The translations under genes were made by a program, and so were the position numbers. Of a stretch of DNA of 43,538 nucleotides, positions 2,753-37,433 are shown piece by piece. Positions within the stretch are counted from its first letter, which is position 1. Each line of letters begins with the position of its first letter. The notes under the pieces were generated by a model. The model was given only the letters and a program-made list of their open reading frames with translations. It made no database searches and was not told where the DNA came from. The stretch lies in IMG/VR virus record IMGVR_UViG_2687453364_000004; one strand, written 5' to 3'. This DNA comes from a virus. Lineage: Duplodnaviria > Heunggongvirae > Uroviricota > Caudoviricetes.

Positions 2753-5700
2753 TCAACTGATACTGATGCCGGCTGTTGATTTCTTCATCACGACAACAAG
2801 AAGGTCGCTGATACTGGTCGTTGGCGTCCAGTTATTTGCACCATATGAAGAAACATTGAAAGTCAGGGTGACATGGCCGTGTCCGGCAGGCATATCAATG
2901 ACTGATGAAAATACCCTGCTGACATCCGTCGCGGGTTGCTGAAAGATTTCCTGTCCGTTCTTCAGCACCTGCAGCTTACAGGTTGAATACCAGTATGACT
3001 GTTGGTTGTTGCTGTTGAAGTTTTCATGCTTACCACCGCGAAACAGAACGGGGGGGACGACTATCTGACGGTCAAAAGCCTGGTCATCGTACACAGTGAC
3101 CGTTATTGTACCGCTGGCATAACTGCCATTTCTCGGAAAGGCTTTTCCCACCGTTTTGACAATATCACCTTCAATCTGGTTAGCTGACAGTTTTCCCAGA
3201 ATCCGACAGTTCTGGTTAATCGTGACATTATTGAGCGTCCCGGAGTTCGCATTCACGTTACCGCTGATATCCGCATTTCTCGCAGAAAGTCGACCATCAG
3301 GTGTCAGTGAAAACGTTGGGGGATTGCCACCGCTGGTAATGGTGGGAGCCGTCAGATATTTCAGGAACACTTCGTTCATGAATATCTGATCGCCCTGCCC
3401 AACAAACATCGGCTTTGTATTGCCATTCGCAGGATTAATCATCGCAATCCTGTCCGCCGCCAGCAGCACCTGACTCTGCATACCGTCAGGGGTATTCTCA
3501 ATACCGGCACCAATACCCGCGATATAAAGGCGTCCGTCCTGCATCTGCTGCAGCTTCACAGCCCACATGCTGTTCAGGTTATTATTTGTATCAACCTGAA
3601 CCTTCTGTATCTGCTGGATCGCTGCACTCTGGTCTTCCAGTTTCTTATTGACGGTCTGCGTGATTTCATTGCTGACATCCGTAATGGACGTCCTGATTTC
3701 AGCCAGGTCAGGCGCAAGCTGACCGTTATCAATCTGCGTCCACAACTCCTGAGCCAGATGGGTTTTCCCTATCTCTCCTTTGAAAAAATCCAGATAGCCG
3801 GATGCATCATCACTCGGCTGGCCAACAGCCTCCACAAATGCCGATTTGCCAACGGTGTTCACACTGCGAATGTAAAAATAATAATCATGGCCCGGTTTGA
3901 TATTGATACTGGCGGCTATCCAGTACAGCGCCGTACCAAGATAACGCGCGCTGGCTTCAACCTGCCTGATATCCGCAATCCGCTTTTCCGAGAACCAGAA
4001 CTCAAACTGTACCGTCGGATCATAAACGGCAAGATGCGGCGTTGCGGTTATCTGAAAATAGCCCGGCGTCAGCTCAATCCGCGATGGCGCTGCCGGTGCG
4101 GCAATCCGGAACGATACCGACGCCGGATCCCCCTGCTGCCCCCACGCATTTACCGCCCGGACTGTCAGCCTGTAGTTCCCCAGCGCCAGTTGCCTGAAGC
4201 GGTATGTGGTTTCCGTCGTCCTGGCCGTGCTGACCAGCCGCTCACTGCCGTCATCCGCTGCCACGGTCAGGCGAAGCATAAAGCTCACCCCCTTCACCAC
4301 CTTCGGTGTGTCCCATCGCGCCAGCACCTGATATTCCCCGCTGTCTGCGGTGACTTCTGCGGTCAGGTGCTGCACCGCGGGCGGCGTGACACCATTCACC
4401 GTGCCACTCTGTTCGCCGTCAAAGTGCGCCCCGTTATCCACGATGGTCTCTTTTTCCGGCACATGCTGCACGGCGGTGATGGCATACGTGCCGTCGTCGT
4501 TTTCACGGATACTCACGCAGCGGAACAGTCGCTGGCGCAGCGTCGGCAGCTTCAGCCCCCATACGCTGTATTCAGCAACACCGTCAGGAACACGGCTCAC
4601 TTTCACCTTCACGCCGTCGGTGACGGACTGAACCTCCACGCTGACCGGATTGCCACTTCCGTCAACCAGGCTTATCAGCGTGGTACCGGAGGATGGCAGC
4701 GTGATTTCACGGTCGAGCGTCAGCGTCCGGGTCTGGCTGTTCACCGCCAGCACACGACCACCGGTGCTGATACCGGCATAGTCATCATCGCAGATTTCAA
4801 TGACATCCCCCGGTACATGGCGAAGCCCTTCAGCACCCACGCTGAAGTCCACGGTCTGCGTTTCCAGCAGCTCCGTTTTAATCAGCCACAGCCCGGCGCG
4901 GTGTGCCTGCCCCCGGCTGGTACAGCCAAAGGCATCCATCTTCGTGACGTTACGGCCGTAACGGGCAATGGCCTGCGTATCCTCCACGAGCTCTGTCGCC
5001 GTCTCCCAGCCGTTATCCGGGTCAATCCAGTTCACCTCAACGGCATTATGGCGGTCCTTCAGGGCGCTGAAGCTGTAGCGGAACGGCGCGCCATCATCCG
5101 GCATCACCACATTACTGCGGTTATAGGTCCACACCTTATCTGATGGTCGGTCCTGCACGAACGTCAGCGTCTGCCCGTTCCATACCGGCATACAGCGCAT
5201 CGCCGAGCAGAAATCACTGAGCACATCCCACGCCTTGCGCTGTGTGGTCAGGTACGCATTACAGGTAATGCGCGGCTCCGTGCCGCCAAAGCCGTCCGGC
5301 ACCGACTGGTCGCAGTACTGGCCGATGACATACAGCGCCCATTTATCCACATCCGCCGCACCAAGACGTTTCCCCATGCCGTAGCGCGGATGGGTCAGCA
5401 TATCCCACAGACACCAGGCCATGTTGTTGCTGTATGCCGGTTTTAACGTTCCGTCCCAGATACCGCTGTATTGCCGCGTCTGCGGGTTATAGTTCGACGG
5501 CACCTGCAGAATGCGCCCGCGAAGATGATAATTACGGCTCACCTGCTGGCTGCCGAACTGCTCCGAGTCCACCTGCACGCCAACCAGTGCCGTGTTCGGG
5601 TAGCACTGTTTCACATCGATGATTTCGGTGTATGACGACCAGAGCGTTTTGTTCAGCAGCTGGTCTGTGGTGCTGTCCGGCGTCATCCTGCGCATCCGGA

Positions 5701-6235
5701 TATTAAACGGGCGCGGCGGCAGGTTATCCACCACCACCGAGGCCAGATACTGCGAGGTGGTTTTGCCCTTAATGGTGATGTCTTTTTCCGTCACCCAGCC
5801 ACCGTTACGCTGTATCTGAACCAGCAGGCGAACTTCCGACGGATTCCTGTCTCCCTTTGAGGTGGTTTCCACCAGTGCCTGTACACCGAAGGTAAAGCGC
5901 AGACGGTCGATGTTTGCCGACGTGATGGTCCGGGTGATCGGCGTGTCATATTTCACTTCCGTACCCAGCACCGTCTCGGAGCCGGAGGATTCAAATCCCT
6001 CCGGCGGTGACTGCTCCTGCTCACCGGCCCGGAACACCACCGTGACGCCGGATATATTGGTATTCCCCTCACTGTCCAGCACCGGCGTACTGTTCAGCAG
6101 CACGCTTTTTAATCCATCCACCGGACCTTCAACCGGCCCTTCGCTGATGGCATCGATCACACTCAGCAGCTGCGTGGACTTCAGGTTGTCCTTCGCTTCG
6201 CGCGGGGTATGCCCCTTACTGCTGCCTTTACCCAT
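2753..6235 (-). CDS. J: central tail fibre / host specificity protein J
   Basis: 1160 aa; near-identical to lambda J over the N-terminal ~800 aa ([34 protein letters not shown]...), C-terminal receptor-binding part more divergent. Confidence 0.95.
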
Positions 6236-6295
6236 TCGTCATGCTCCATAAACGATAAAACCGCCCGGAGGCGGTTTCACATAAAACGTTTTTCA

Positions 6296-6937
6296 TCAGC
6301 GACCAATCACCACAACCTGACCACCATCACCTTCATCTGCTGTGCTGATCTCCTGAGATACCACACGTGATCCCACGCGCATTTCACCGTACAGAACGGG
6401 CAGAACATTGCCCTGGGCAACCATATTATCCAGTGAAGAAAAATAGGTGTTCTGTTTGCCGTTATCCGTTGTCTGTGTGCGGGGGGTTCTGGGTTTAGGG
6501 GCCAGCATCTGTGCAACACCGCCAAGCGTCATACTGGCACCGAGAGAAAACAGCAGATTACTCGCCATAATTCCTACCCCCGGCATCCATATAGCAACCG
6601 CCATAACAGCCGCCCCCAGCACAGCCTGAAACACACCGCCACTTTTGGCTCCTGCCAGACGCGGCACGATATGGATCACAGCACCATTTGCCAGCGGTTC
6701 ATTAAGACGGGCTGATAATTCCGTTTCACCTGTATCACGCCCGGCAATCCGTACCTGATACCAGCCGTCGCTCAGTTTCTGACGAAACGCCGGGAGCTGT
6801 GTGGCCAGCGCCCGGATGGCTTCAGCCCCCGTTTTCACACGAAGGTCGATGCGGCGGCCAAATCGTTGTAAATCCCCGTAAAGGCAGATGCGCGCCATGC
6901 CCGGTGACGCCAGAGGGAGTGTGTGCGTCGCTGCCAT
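6296..6937 (-). CDS. I: tail tip assembly protein I
   Basis: MAATHTLPLASPGMARICLYGDLQRFGRRIDLRVKTGAEAIRALATQLPAFRQ... matches lambda gpI. Confidence 0.9.
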   Translation of the reverse strand: MAATHTLPLASPGMARICLYGDLQRFGRRIDLRVKTGAEAIRALATQLPAFRQKLSDGWYQVRIAGRDTGETELSARLNEPLANGAVIHIVPRLAGAKSGGVFQAVLGAAVMAVAIWMPGVGIMASNLLFSLGASMTLGGVAQMLAPKPRTPRTQTTDNGKQNTYFSSLDNMVAQGNVLPVLYGEMRVGSRVVSQEISTADEGDGGQVVVIGR

Positions 6938-7578
6938 TTGTCGGTATACCTCTCTCGTTTGCTCAGTTGTTCAGGAATATGGTGCAGCAGCTCGCCATCA
7001 CCACAGTAAATGGCGGCATGATTCGGCACCGATGAACCAAAACAGCACAGCAGCACATCGCCCGGTTGTGCTGATGACAACGGCACCTGATACAGCCCTG
7101 TGGCCTCCAGATTATCCAGATAGAGATTCTGACCGTGACGCCACCAGTCATCCCCGCGATGAAAATCCGGCATCTCAATCCCCGCCAGATGATAAGCATC
7201 CCGGAACAGCGTGTAACAGTCCGTCACCCCGTGCTCAAAGCACCGCCCGGTAAGATGCGGCACACAGCGGAATTTATGAATCTCACCCCGGCAGACCAGC
7301 CACCACGGCAAATCGCTCTGCACCTGCAGCCGCCTGTCAGCCTCACTCAGCCAGGGCAGACCACCGGGGTGGCTGTGGACCAGCGCCACAATCTCACCCT
7401 GCATCTCTGCCCGCAGCCAGTCCTCCGGCGACATCCGGAAATACGCCTCCGGCTCACCGGAGATATTCACGCAGGGAAAATATCTTTCCCCCTTCGGCGT
7501 TCTCACCACGAAGCCACACGACTCCGCTGGCGCACATCGCCGGGCGTGCGCCAGAATCGCTGATTCTGTCTGTGTCAT
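6835..7578 (-). CDS. K: tail tip assembly protein K (MPN/JAMM plus NlpC/P60-like domains)
   Basis: starts MTQTESAILAHARRCAPAESCGFVV as in lambda gpK; HSHPGG metal-binding motif; start placed at the internal ATG of the track ORF; 3' end overlaps I by ~100 nt as read from the track. Confidence 0.85.
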   Translation of the reverse strand: MTQTESAILAHARRCAPAESCGFVVRTPKGERYFPCVNISGEPEAYFRMSPEDWLRAEMQGEIVALVHSHPGGLPWLSEADRRLQVQSDLPWWLVCRGEIHKFRCVPHLTGRCFEHGVTDCYTLFRDAYHLAGIEMPDFHRGDDWWRHGQNLYLDNLEATGLYQVPLSSAQPGDVLLCCFGSSVPNHAAIYCGDGELLHHIPEQLSKRERYTDKWQRRTHSLWRHRAWRASAFTGIYNDLAAASTFV

Positions 7579-34997: not shown

Positions 34998-35537
34998 TCA
35001 TATCGCCCCCAGCATGGTAGTAACCATCGCCATCAATGGACCAGCCAGATCTGGGTCCACACGAAACATCGACACAATACCTTCACTAATTTCCTTCAGT
35101 TTCTGGTGGCGTGGTGCGTTGAGAATGACAGCCTGTTTTGCCTCACTGAGTTCCTTTTCCATTTCAGCCAACCTAGCCATGAAGCTATCCTGCTCAACCA
35201 GGTAACCGCGATATTCCAGCGGTAGTACCGCCAGAATTGCCGGGGTCAGTTCACGCACGTTATTTCGGTATTTTTCAGAATCGAATTTGTTATCGAGGAA
35301 GCGGAACAGCTTCTGGCGTGCACGGCTGACATCATCAGGGAAATCGATGGTGCCGCCGCCCTGCTCCAGATACTCATTCACAATGAGTGTGGCAACGACA
35401 TCCTGATTATCTACAGCCGACCAGGCGCGGACGGCATCACGGATTTTTTCGTGGCCTGGCACCTGTTTTGTTTGAGAACGATTTATCACCGCAGTCGGGC
35501 TAAATCCGCTAGTCTGTTGGTATGTAAGTGGTTGCAT
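34998..35537 (-). CDS. YdaT-family protein (CII functional analogue of Rac/CP-933P-type immunity regions)
   Basis: 179 aa in the cII position between cro and O; segments EYLEQGGG and LTPAILAVLPLEYR resemble E. coli YdaT from memory; AAAGGAG Shine-Dalgarno. Confidence 0.6.
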   Translation of the reverse strand: MQPLTYQQTSGFSPTAVINRSQTKQVPGHEKIRDAVRAWSAVDNQDVVATLIVNEYLEQGGGTIDFPDDVSRARQKLFRFLDNKFDSEKYRNNVRELTPAILAVLPLEYRGYLVEQDSFMARLAEMEKELSEAKQAVILNAPRHQKLKEISEGIVSMFRVDPDLAGPLMAMVTTMLGAI

Positions 35538-35580
35538 AATTGACTCCTTTAGTTTGAATTGACTGTTAAGTTGATTGCTT

Positions 35581-35594
35581 ATTGTTAAAGAGCG
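35581..35594 (-). promoter_or_regulatory. boxA element (nutR-like) just downstream of cro
   Basis: minus strand CGCTCTTTAACAAT matches the boxA consensus (G)CTCTTTAACAA; lies ~13 nt after the cro stop, the position of lambda nutR; no convincing boxB hairpin seen. Confidence 0.6.
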
Positions 35595-35606
35595 TGAAAT
35601 GGAAAT

Positions 35607-35837
35607 TTAAGCTGCGTTCTTTTCGGTGTGTGGAAACAACTTCGGAAGATCCGGGCGAATCTGGTATGCCTTCACTACTCCACCAGTAGCCGTAACAATG
35701 CTGCCGACATGTTCAGGGGATACCTTTGCTTTGTTGTGAAGCCACTTATAGACGGCCTGCTGTGAAACTTCGCAAGCAGCGCCCAGTTTCTTTTGTGAAC
35801 CAACGATATTGATCGCTGTTTTGATAGCTGGGTTCAT
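35607..35837 (-). CDS. Cro/YdaS-like HTH regulator
   Basis: 76 aa, divergent from cI across the operator region; GGAGG Shine-Dalgarno; helix-turn-helix-like segment QKKLGAACEVSQQAVYKWL. Confidence 0.7.
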   Translation of the reverse strand: MNPAIKTAINIVGSQKKLGAACEVSQQAVYKWLHNKAKVSPEHVGSIVTATGGVVKAYQIRPDLPKLFPHTEKNAA

Positions 35838-35941
35838 AACAACCTCCGTGGTTAATTTGAATCAAGATTAAAACTATGGTTGTTTTTAGTCAACAACCAT
35901 TTTCGTTTGATGGAATAAAACCTTGGTTGTACATTTGGACT
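35838..35941. promoter_or_regulatory. oR/pR/pRM divergent promoter-operator region
   Basis: inverted repeat ATGGTTGTT-7 nt-AACAACCAT (~35876-35900) plus further GGTTGT/ACAACC half-sites; candidate pR (minus strand TTGACT-17-TAATCT) and pRM (plus strand TTGATG-17-TACATT ending 7 nt before the cI ATG, implying a leaderless cI mRNA). Confidence 0.55.
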
Positions 35942-36631
35942 ATGAAAACAACACTCTCAGAAAGACTTAAAGAAGCCAGATTAGCGCGAGGCCTTACACA
36001 AAAGGCGCTTGGGGATTTGGTCGGGGTTAGCCAGGCTGCTATTCAGAAAATCGAAACAGGGAAAGCTAATCAAACAACTAAAATCGTGGAGATCGCGAAC
36101 GCTTTGGGTGTGCGCGCAGAATGGTTATCTTCTGGCGTTGGAAATATGTCAGACAGTACAGTGCAACCAATACAATCAACTGTCAGCCATTCCAAATACT
36201 TCAAGATTGACGTTCTTGATATAGAAGTCAGTGCTGGGCCGGGAGTCATCAACCGTGAGTTTGTAGAAGTTCTACGCTCGGTTGAGTACTCGTTTGACGA
36301 TGCTCGTCACATGTTCGATGGTAGGAAGGCGGAAAATATCCGCATCATTAACGTGCGTGGTGACAGCATGTCAGGAACGATCGAACCAGGTGATCTGCTG
36401 TTCGTTGATATCACAGTTAAATCTTTCGACGGTGATGGTATCTATGCGTTTCTGTACGACGACACAGCCCATGTAAAGCGCCTGCAAATGATGAAGGATA
36501 AGCTGCTGGTCATCTCTGATAACAAAAGCTACTCACCGTGGGACCCGATCGAGAAAGACGAGATGAACCGGGTGTTCATCTTCGGTAAGGTTATTGGGAG
36601 CATGCCGCAGACATATAGGAAGCATGGGTAG
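35942..36631 (+). CDS. CI-like repressor (N-terminal HTH, C-terminal LexA/S24-type autocleavage domain)
   Basis: MKTTLSERLKEARLARGLTQKALGDLVGVSQAAIQKIETGK... (HTH); C-terminal RGDSMSGTIEPGDLLFVD...HVKRL resembles the S24 Ser/Lys dyad region; internal ATG chosen. Confidence 0.85.
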   Translation: MKTTLSERLKEARLARGLTQKALGDLVGVSQAAIQKIETGKANQTTKIVEIANALGVRAEWLSSGVGNMSDSTVQPIQSTVSHSKYFKIDVLDIEVSAGPGVINREFVEVLRSVEYSFDDARHMFDGRKAENIRIINVRGDSMSGTIEPGDLLFVDITVKSFDGDGIYAFLYDDTAHVKRLQMMKDKLLVISDNKSYSPWDPIEKDEMNRVFIFGKVIGSMPQTYRKHG

Positions 36632-36896: not shown

Positions 36897-36950
36897 CAAC
36901 CAATAAAACAACTTTTGTTGTTGACGATAAAACAACTATAGTTTTAAATA
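36897..36950 (+). promoter_or_regulatory. oL/pL candidate: early-left promoter with GTTGTT/AACAAC operator half-sites
   Basis: AACAAC-TTTT-GTTGTT and GTTGTT-8 nt-AACAAC repeats overlapping TTGACG-17 nt-TTAAAT; the same half-site as in oR. Confidence 0.5.
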
Positions 36951-37142
36951 AGTTCATCGCAACAACACAACGATACGGCAACTACCTGATTCACCGTTGC
37001 GATGACCGCTTAGATCCGCAGTTTGAATTTCAGCAGGCTTCGGGGAGTGCGAGGGGTGAAACGGACGCGTGAACGTCGGTGTGACCAGCTGAAATTAACT
37101 CAACATTTCATACCTTAGTCGCTTCAACGAGGCGGCTTAGTT

Positions 37143-37433
37143 ATGACAACCGGCGGCCATCCACCGCCTGAATACGCGCAGAAGTCTCTATATGTTCAGC
37201 AGCCCAGCTTACGGGCAGGAGTTTTTATGGTTCATCAACATTACGGAACGCAGACCGTTAATCGCGGTGCGGTCATGCCAGGAATGCTGGTCAAACACAA
37301 AGATGGTACCTGGACTGCATCAGCTAATTTACGCGGACGGCTTTATCTGCATCGCGGCATCGAGCGCACTTATACCCGTGATTTGCTCGTGGAAGTTTTT
37401 CTCGACGGACGCGGCAACGGCCTGAATCACTAA
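37143..37433 (+). CDS. hypothetical early-left protein (occupies the lambda N-to-kil position)
   Basis: 96-aa ORF with a GAGG ~11 nt upstream; no family recognised; an overlapping 77-aa alternative-frame ORF (37192-37425) cannot be excluded. Confidence 0.3.

Follow-up and report, generated by a model that had tools for sequence, protein, structure and literature searches.

Work on the RNA element boxA has so far dealt with two settings, the N-dependent nut site, of which it forms one half, and host leaders, namely those of rrn, suhB and clustered regularly interspaced short palindromic repeats (CRISPR). Its core is recognized by NusB-S10 (PMC3177189; Nodwell and Greenblatt 1993, as cited in PMC12360218). 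On untranslated RNA, boxA alone gives Nus-dependent protection from Rho, both in CRISPR and in a reporter (Stringer et al. 2020, PMC7665894), and the functional gamma-proteobacterial consensus GYTCTTTAANA was derived from boxA of rrn and suhB (Baniulyte et al. 2017, PMC5725501). By contrast, translation of suhB and of a gene for a ParE-like toxin is repressed by the boxA complex, which promotes Rho termination (PMC5725501; review PMC12360218). The put RNA acts directly on RNA polymerase without Nus factors (PMC9378689). Our literature searches turned up no report of a boxA standing alone in the early right operon of lambdoid phages without N. In the current study, such an element was analyzed in the tailed-phage record IMGVR_UViG_2687453364_000004 of the IMG/VR database, of which the whole stretch of 43,538 nt is called the window here. 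The window is a lambdoid prophage in reverse, and the boxA lies on its minus strand between the cro analogue and ydaT.

The boxA, CGCTCTTTAACAA(T), is located at 35594-35582 on the minus strand, which is the strand of the pR operon, and matches the consensus exactly at 13 of 13 positions. As RNA, the element reads CGCUCUUUAACAA (35582..35594, minus strand) and is the predicted loading site of NusB-NusE(S10) on the pR transcript; its last 12 nt are the 12-mer GCUCUUUAACAA, a complete match to the boxA consensus, and the 19-mer RNA of the region is UUCACGCUCUUUAACAAUA. An exact 13-mer match occurred in 0 of 100 dinucleotide-preserving shuffles, and the element is the sole match in the 43.5-kb window even when two mismatches are allowed. 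The functional consensus is satisfied by the window form, GCTCTTTAACA, and also by the variant allele, GTTCTTTAACA. The E. coli rrn boxA, UGCUCUUUAACAAU, has the same core as the window boxA and is likewise matched by the 12-mer. The 3' TTAAC of the element lies within a block common to boxA-less sister alleles; starting from this fixed TTAAC, about 8 further bases are required to reach 13/13, with a probability of about 1.5e-5 by our own arithmetic, and a chance origin is unlikely even given the shared block.

The element begins 12 nt past the TAA stop codon of cro, about +265 from the inferred pR start, on the sense strand of cro and ydaT and outside any open reading frame (ORF). The ydaT ATG follows 45 nt past boxA, and the distance from boxA to the ydaT Shine-Dalgarno sequence is 32 nt. 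The folds of the boxA-region RNA were either empty or weak (centroid of -3.3 kcal/mol; z = +0.7 and -0.4), leaving boxA unpaired or weakly paired, and they contained no stable hairpin that could serve as boxB, either in the stretch from boxA to ydaT or within the first 60 nt of that gene. By sequence, orientation and predicted accessibility, the element qualifies as a stand-alone BoxA of the rrn/CRISPR/suhB class. We also observed that the 5' half of boxA (GCUCUUU, 35587-35593) is complementary to the ydaT Shine-Dalgarno region AAAGGAGU (35544-35550, minus strand); the pairing is weak (centroid -3.3 kcal/mol), and through it NusB/E binding and the accessibility of the Shine-Dalgarno sequence could in principle be coupled.

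Among known sites, lambda-type nutR (lambda, phage 21/PA28 and the 933W-type SH2026Stx1) shares with the window element the boxA core, the strand and the slot before the cII analogue. These sites and the window boxA begin 7–12 nt past the cro stop, the distance being 7 nt in lambda, PA28 and SH2026Stx1, and lie ~230–265 nt from pR; the cro of PA28 and SH2026Stx1 is 57–67% identical to the window cro. The window locus differs from nutR in having no boxB hairpin, no N protein and no nutL, and in carrying the full rrn-grade consensus as opposed to the weaker lambda boxA, CGCUCUUA. In the pL leader region (36921..37433), the expected place of N and nutL, both are absent and Kil is the first gene. 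A tblastn search of the window with six N/Nun proteins (lambda, P22, PA28, SH2026 and HK022) returned nothing, the best match having E ~0.08 and lying outside the pL region, while the same six queries and a seventh N protein detected N in the positive-control loci. Similarly, no candidate in the window matched Pfam N_peptide (PF25694), which was matched in the controls L089, L106 and PA28, and no N gene is listed in the RefSeq/GenBank annotations of identical or near-identical copies. As to nutL, no second boxA within 2 mismatches exists anywhere in the window, and N-positive controls have one. Because boxB, N and nutL, three of the four features that define a nut site, were tested and found to be lacking, and only boxA is present, the boxA here is not a nut site.

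Most of this had been anticipated by an earlier note made from the letters of the window, which had described a near-consensus boxA on the minus strand, immediately downstream of cro in the position of nutR, with no N gene and no obvious boxB. The match proved to be complete and unique in the window; the position agrees with that in lambda; the absence of a stable fold holds for the window allele; and the lack of N was upheld by gene order, tblastn, Pfam and annotation. The naming of the next gene as cII has to be corrected, since it encodes not a lambda-type CII but a YdaT-family CII analogue (PF06254, phrog_163).

Two candidates in the pL leader were considered and rejected. A 31-aa Arg-rich ORF at the N position (37023-37118, plus strand, TTG start, ...RGVKRTRERRCDQ...) has no Shine-Dalgarno sequence, no Pfam N_peptide match, no similarity to N and no other Pfam or PHROG match, so that it was not accepted as a hidden N. 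In 16 of 60 copies this ORF is fused in frame to Kil (133–136 aa), with CAG in place of the TAG stop, and its open or stub state showed no correlation with the slot type after cro. The ORF reads MNFSRLRGVRGVKRTRERRCDQLK..., and its Arg-rich segment is almost invariant in amino acids among 27 DNA variants, with some of the nucleotide changes between them appearing to be synonymous. The ~190-nt pL leader itself (36955-37142, plus strand) is a conserved module common to 4A7-type phages of different immunity, with homology beginning at about the transcription start. A put-like RNA in this leader (~36955-37142) was rejected as well. The put RNA has two stems in ~70 nt with the conserved CGAACGGC...GUCGG...UCAGGAUGA...CAAUG and is found downstream of pL and/or pR. 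The leader has only an 18-nt resemblance to the HK022 putL core, and blastn, alignment with HK639 putL and Rfam were negative: the HK022 putL and putR and HK639 putL queries matched L085, L087 and L090 and nothing in the window, no Rfam family was matched in the window, and the pL leader fold is unremarkable (z = -0.96). The put phages HK022 and HK639 are comparable to the window in being lambdoid and N-less, the window Cro being 62% identical to that of HK639, and the slot of the window boxA is the putR slot of HK022, phiEt88, UPF_BP1 and PDP110P2; HK022 putR lies ~270 nt from PR (PMC9378689). However, neither early operon of the window resembles put in sequence or in structure.

The slot after cro was compared among ~25 distinct relatives of the YdaS-family Cro (47–100% amino acid identity) taken from GenBank phages, NCBI genomes, metagenome assemblies and IMG/VR, and five contents were found, including boxA alone as in the window. 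The first is a full nutR, boxA plus boxB, accompanied by N and a nutL boxA, in PA28, SH2026Stx1 and the Pantoea locus L106; PA28 carries boxA CGCTCTTTAACAT with a phage-21-type boxB, SH2026Stx1 carries boxA CGCTCTTTATCAA with boxB, and the Salmonella locus L108 has N and boxB with a degenerate boxA. The second is an HK022-type putR, present in phiEt88, UPF_BP1, PDP110P2 and L111-L118 and likewise in HK022. In the third, represented by HK639, 4A7 and two Klebsiella phages, a spacer of 29–40 nt or overlapping genes and a hairpin across the cro stop are found without boxA. No boxA was present in the slot of L101, L105 and L107.

The fourth content is a single boxA followed after ~19 nt by the hairpin GGCUGA-N4-UCAGCC, for which we found no description in the literature. 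It occurs in the Rac-like, YdaT-type loci L102, L117 and L119-L122, with boxA CGCTCTTTAAAAA or CGCTCTTTAACAA, and in L103, L109 and L110, which have a lambda-type CII and all carry the boxA 13-mer of the window. Across these loci (12–18 kb), no tblastn match to N/Nun, no N_peptide and no nutL were found, and the single consensus boxA is always on the pR strand behind cro. The window shares the longer 16-mer CACGCTCTTTAACAAT without change with L099, L100 and L103, and the pL operators of L103 are the same as those of the window. The module is also present with a lambda-type CII in L097, and L104 has boxA with a different hairpin. In this whole group (L097, L102, L103, L109, L110 and L117-L122), boxA and spacer are homologous to those of the window and occupy the same slot, N and nutL are absent from the 12–18-kb loci, and the window differs by having lost the hairpin through a 12-nt deletion. 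The next start codon lies 45–119 nt past boxA overall and 94–119 nt in the relatives, and the next gene encodes a lambda-type CII, YdaT or a 119-aa ORF. Over the 13-mer, the mean top-base frequency is 0.92 versus 0.47–0.49 in the 25-nt flanks; the search pattern itself prescribed 8 of these 13 positions, and the other five are conserved too. Conservation in related prophages, which the earlier note had set as a check on the motif, stands for about half of the sampled Cro-family relatives and fails for the rest, whose slots hold putR or nothing.

The relatives' hairpin lies ~17–19 nt past boxA (L093 1555-1638, L094 1555-1638, L102 9232-9328, L103 9232-9330 and L097 2732-2821). Its stem is kept, once by a register shift and once by a G-C to G-U change (L119), and its loops are AUUA, GAAA, GGAA, AUUAA and AUGAA. 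Its presence in phages that lack N makes it improbable that this hairpin is a boxB of the N type. Another conserved hairpin, GCCGC-(C)TAA..-GCGGC, straddles the cro stop in HK639, 4A7, the two Klebsiella phages and UPF_BP1 (L084 ~3715-3740 and L002 ~7365-7390; also L086, L091 and L087) and is absent from the window allele. In addition, L103 has an HK639-like start of the pL leader followed by ~800 nt of GC-rich, apparently non-coding RNA (6100-7025, minus strand) and, as first pL gene, one for an 81-aa zinc-ribbon-like protein; the GenBank record of HK639 annotates an 'M3-like RNA' just downstream of the YdaT-type cII gene (L084 4319-4378).

The window allele is widespread. Over the tested 2.7 kb, the window is 100% identical to a prophage that E. 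coli ST131 strains, JJ1886 among them, carry at icd, and it is 99.7% identical to the viable phage PhiR34_1. The 2.7-kb gam-to-ydaT query was covered to at least 80% in 1,499 complete E. coli genomes, and the segment with the cro end and boxA was found in 1,515 of 5,426, with the same ydaT-proximal sequence in all 1,515. The N-less arrangement is also present in phages isolated on K-12 or E. coli C, namely PhiR34_1, PhiR26_1, PhiR5_1 and PhiR47_2. Identity reaches 99% or more in 1,466 of these 1,515 copies, and 47 are diverged alleles. As all copies share one ydaT-proximal sequence, no ancestor with a full nutR is visible in E. coli. A search for a nutR donor, in which the spacer was compared by distant blastn with 50,697 phage records, returned only the window allele.

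The diverged alleles that were fetched (L093 and L094) and the IMG/VR loci L123, L136 and L142 contain 12 extra nt, AGACTGATTAAC, that form a weak 5-bp hairpin, GACUG-AUUAA-CAGUC, with a non-conserved loop at the position of the relatives' hairpin. The boxA-to-hairpin spacer of these minor alleles aligns with the L102-type spacer (T.AG.AATCAA..CTTAAC). The window allele is thus best read as one that lost this hairpin when 12 nt between TTAAC repeats were deleted. The boxA of the most diverged allele (L094 and L142) differs only by C to T at the Y position, giving CGTTCTTTAACAA, which still meets the consensus and has the core of suhB. Of the 66 window-type copies scanned in IMG/VR, 65 keep boxA unchanged and one has it mutated; the near-identical copies offered 3 variants among 57 loci, too few for statistical power. 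The earlier note had suggested a recent loss of N. No N remnant is present in the window, the N-less state is the standard one (1,499 genomes) and two diverged lineages have a lone boxA, which argue against that suggestion; what appears to have been lost recently is the small hairpin at the boxB position, not N.

Based on these findings, we favor the reading that the element is a genuine NusB/S10 loading site that works without N and most likely makes pR transcription Rho-resistant, with a probability of roughly 0.45. According to this reading, the single-stranded boxA would bind the host NusB-NusE(S10) heterodimer once RNA polymerase from pR has passed cro; without N, only the host's own Nus/SuhB complex would be formed. 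On its way into the ydaT-O-P-nin-Q operon, the polymerase would become resistant to Rho, protecting the ~10-kb early transcript with its untranslated stretches, and boxA would serve as a weaker, N-independent substitute for nutR or putR. We infer NusB/E binding from the match to boxA sequences of known binding, as well as full complex assembly and the anti-Rho outcome. The favored reliance on host Nus factors, which had been the other suggestion of the earlier note, rests on the sequence and on the analogy with rrn and CRISPR boxA, which likewise act without a phage factor from a promoter-proximal position in a long transcript that needs to escape Rho (PMC7665894, PMC12360218). Unlike those elements, the window boxA is placed between two ORFs of a translated polycistronic phage early mRNA and not ahead of untranslated RNA, and it has no rrn-type boxB or boxC context. 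An anti-Rho role is favored because relatives use the slot for processive antiterminators, because the element tracks the post-cro position and not a particular downstream ribosome-binding site, because boxA is kept as a singleton in three N-less lineages, and because the operon is long with untranslated stretches. The path from pR to Q is ~10.7 kb and contains a 249-nt gap and ~1.4 kb of untranslated RNA before the nin genes, mostly antisense to a hydrolase gene; the GC-skew profile of the pR operon, used as a proxy for rut sites, gave only signals that were weak and uninformative. With 1,515 copies among 5,426 complete E. coli genomes and others in phages that are viable, the allele is not a decaying oddity.

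Several observations weigh against this reading. The sisters 4A7, Lambda_4C10, Perceval and HK639, with the same ydaT-O-P genes or a homologous cro, have an empty slot and are viable; since the 4A7-type phages among them share the YdaT, O and P genes, boxA cannot be essential. Complexes of the rrn type are reportedly poor at reading through intrinsic terminators (Albrechtsen et al. 1990). If so, boxA alone would not bring polymerase to Q here, because a strong intrinsic terminator lies between P and Q (28737-28757). Further, both boxAs that were tested at less than 50 nt from a start codon (suhB and CKO_00699) repress rather than antiterminate (PMC5725501). The module may also be partly disabled by the loss of the hairpin that accompanies boxA in relatives, and the 3' half of boxA overlaps the block shared with 4A7-type alleles and may be constrained at the DNA level. 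Lastly, one IMG/VR copy (L149) has a G-to-T change in boxA. We further propose, as a doubtful extension of the favored host-Nus reading, that lambdoid phages may possess a third control of early-operon elongation beside N/nut and put, in which a single rrn-grade boxA after cro, ancestrally together with a small hairpin, would recruit the host Nus/SuhB complex onto pR with no phage factor.

The main and serious rival, although we consider it unlikely on the whole, is repression as in suhB, to which the sequence fits equally well as to antitermination by host Nus factors. The Nus complex bound to boxA would loop the nascent RNA and block the 30S subunit at the ydaT Shine-Dalgarno sequence 32 nt downstream, lowering YdaT synthesis and exposing ydaT-O-P to Rho-dependent polarity, as an N-less equivalent of tR1; it would thereby set the ratio of Cro to YdaT/O/P and bias the lysis-lysogeny choice by Nus-factor availability. 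With 45 nt between boxA and the ydaT ATG, the window falls into the 50-nt class in which both tested cases repress, and repression was still seen when boxA and the Shine-Dalgarno sequence were as much as 100 nt apart (PMC5725501). The suhB leader itself has a consensus boxA less than 50 nt from the start codon and is unstructured, and the variant allele GUUCUUUAACA is as in suhB; the window differs in that boxA is intercistronic and not in a 5' untranslated region, and in that the gene is a phage regulator and not a Nus factor. The E. coli entries consulted in the supplementary list of Baniulyte et al. 2017 (PMC5725501) do not contain the window boxA. The spacer resembles a rut site in being rich in C, poor in G and unstructured, the lambda boxA lying inside rutA of tR1, and boxA-dependent enhancement of termination is listed as established in a 2025 Rho review (PMC12360218). 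The Shine-Dalgarno sequence of the window allele, AAGGAG, is stronger than the AAGG of the boxA-less 4A7 allele, which would fit compensation for repression. Against repression, the boxA of the relatives lies 94–119 nt before unrelated next genes and so tracks the post-cro position and not a ribosome-binding site, and the slot is otherwise held by the processive antiterminators nutR and putR. Moreover, constitutive attenuation without a relieving factor would be an odd design for replication genes.

It is also possible, if likewise unlikely, that the element is an evolutionary leftover of an ancestral boxA-plus-hairpin or nutR-type module of the Cro family, whose partner hairpin was deleted and whose site is used by no factor; it would persist only because the allele is young and highly clonal, and NusB/E may bind it without consequence. 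The 12-nt deletion between the TTAAC repeats did take out a hairpin that the minor alleles keep, the near identity of 1,466 of 1,515 copies leaves little time depth, and the viable boxA-less sisters and the mutated boxA of L149 point the same way. Yet the hairpin-less allele has been overwhelmingly successful, in those 1,466 genomes and in several plating phages, its boxA is intact in all window-type IMG/VR copies but one, and the diverged lineage changed only to the other permitted base. A lone boxA is also kept in two other N-less lineages with unalignable flanks, and the known biochemistry leads one to expect that a full-consensus boxA binds NusB/E and changes the elongation complex, selected or not.

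Least probable by far is that the boxA match is a by-product of YdaT operator or PRE sequences at the ydaS-ydaT junction: CP-933P YdaT footprints ~95 bp at the ydaS end and ydaT start and activates PRE there, its half-site being TTGATT (PMC9986795, PMC8630535), the cI-sense series TTGACT-N6-TTGATT-N5-TTGTTA has a last hexamer complementary to the AACAA end of boxA, and the block ATTGC(C)TTAT..GTTAA is common to 4A7-type alleles encoding the same YdaT, but only the TTAAC part is shared, the CGCTCT half being specific to the window allele, in L097 and L103, which have no YdaT, the gene next to the same boxA encodes a lambda-type CII, and the window YdaT is no more than a remote relative of CP-933P YdaT (E = 7e-4). 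The hexamer series (35559..35587, plus strand) has an 11–12-nt period, overlaps boxA and is a candidate for YdaT operator or PRE elements. The site bound by the YdaT of CP-933P, where ydaS and ydaT meet beside PRE, is TTGATT-N6-AATCAA (PMC9986795, PMC8630535). In the window, the location of the junction fits an operator or PRE, and TTGACT, TTGATT, TTGTTA and one AATCAA are present, without a TTGATT-N6-AATCAA palindrome and with a distant relative of that YdaT. We also observed that AATTGACT is directly repeated 19 nt apart (35538-35587, plus strand) and that AAGTTGATT has an imperfect inverted copy inside the cro 3' end (35634-35642), both being further candidates for operator or PRE elements.

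The surrounding genes are those of a lambdoid early region. The putative pR (TTGACT, 17 nt, TAATCT; 35865..35893, minus strand), read from the sequence and inferred rather than mapped, would start near 35858, and operator-like ACAAC/GTTGT palindromes are found at pR and also flanking pL. It is followed by the 76-aa cro analogue of the YdaS family (35607..35837, minus strand; PF15943 at 4e-17, P22_Cro, phrog_35) and by the 69-nt cro-ydaT intercistronic spacer (35538..35606, minus strand), which is unstructured and rut-like (C = 15, G = 6) and holds boxA, the ydaT Shine-Dalgarno sequence AAGGAG (35544-35549, minus strand) and, after 35565, the place where the 12 nt were deleted. The first gene past boxA encodes the 179-aa YdaT-family CII analogue (34998..35537, minus strand), with matches to PF06254 at 9e-30 and to phrog_163, 'CII-like transcriptional activator', at 6e-67, and with a distant match to the CP-933P YdaT structure 8bt1 (E = 7e-4). 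O (35001-33982) and P (33985-33284) follow on the minus strand. On the plus strand are the S24 repressor (35942-36631), pL as read from the sequence (TTGACG, 17 nt, TTAAAT; 36921-36949) with its ~190-nt leader, Kil as the first pL gene (37228-37433; phrog_294), and the row of exo, bet, gam and Kil (39273-37228).

Between P and the nin genes, the window carries a cargo insertion (27689-33120) composed of a moron, a terminator and a convergent hydrolase gene; at this position, viable relatives such as PhiR34_1 have ren, an SMR-type gene and a recombinase instead. The moron (33034-28769, minus strand) encodes a 1,421-aa inverse-autotransporter adhesin that is intimin/invasin-like with three near-identical Ig-domain repeats, and the DNA upstream of it is AT-rich with promoter-like sites (33056-33120). 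The strong intrinsic terminator after the moron (28737..28757, minus strand) was identified by terminator scan as a 9-bp stem with 7 GC pairs followed by CTTTTT, and it is bidirectional. The alpha/beta hydrolase gene (27689-28732, plus strand) is antisense to the pR operon, and nin-type genes and then Q (25840-25151, minus strand) lie beyond. For polymerase travelling from pR to Q, the terminator and the untranslated stretch behind it are obstacles.

The element itself is a textbook one, whereas its context is unexpected, widespread and directly testable with available phages. PhiR34_1 plates on K-12, and natural, isogenic-like comparators without boxA (4A7-type) and with boxA plus hairpin (L093 type) exist, which makes the system tractable. 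It offers a natural case, in a translated operon, of the question of when boxA protects from Rho and when it promotes termination, to which the current answer is only 'context'. If the favored host-Nus reading is true, this full-consensus boxA, standing by itself in the nutR slot of lambdoid phages without N, would be evidence of direct phage use of the host-only Nus complex. Under its doubtful extension to a third kind of control, delayed-early expression, and perhaps the lysis-lysogeny choice, would be tied to the host pool of free Nus factors. This would operate in a prophage family of more than one quarter of complete E. coli genomes, including ST131, whose prophages carry the adhesin moron in the same operon, so that control of the operon may bear on both induction and cargo expression.

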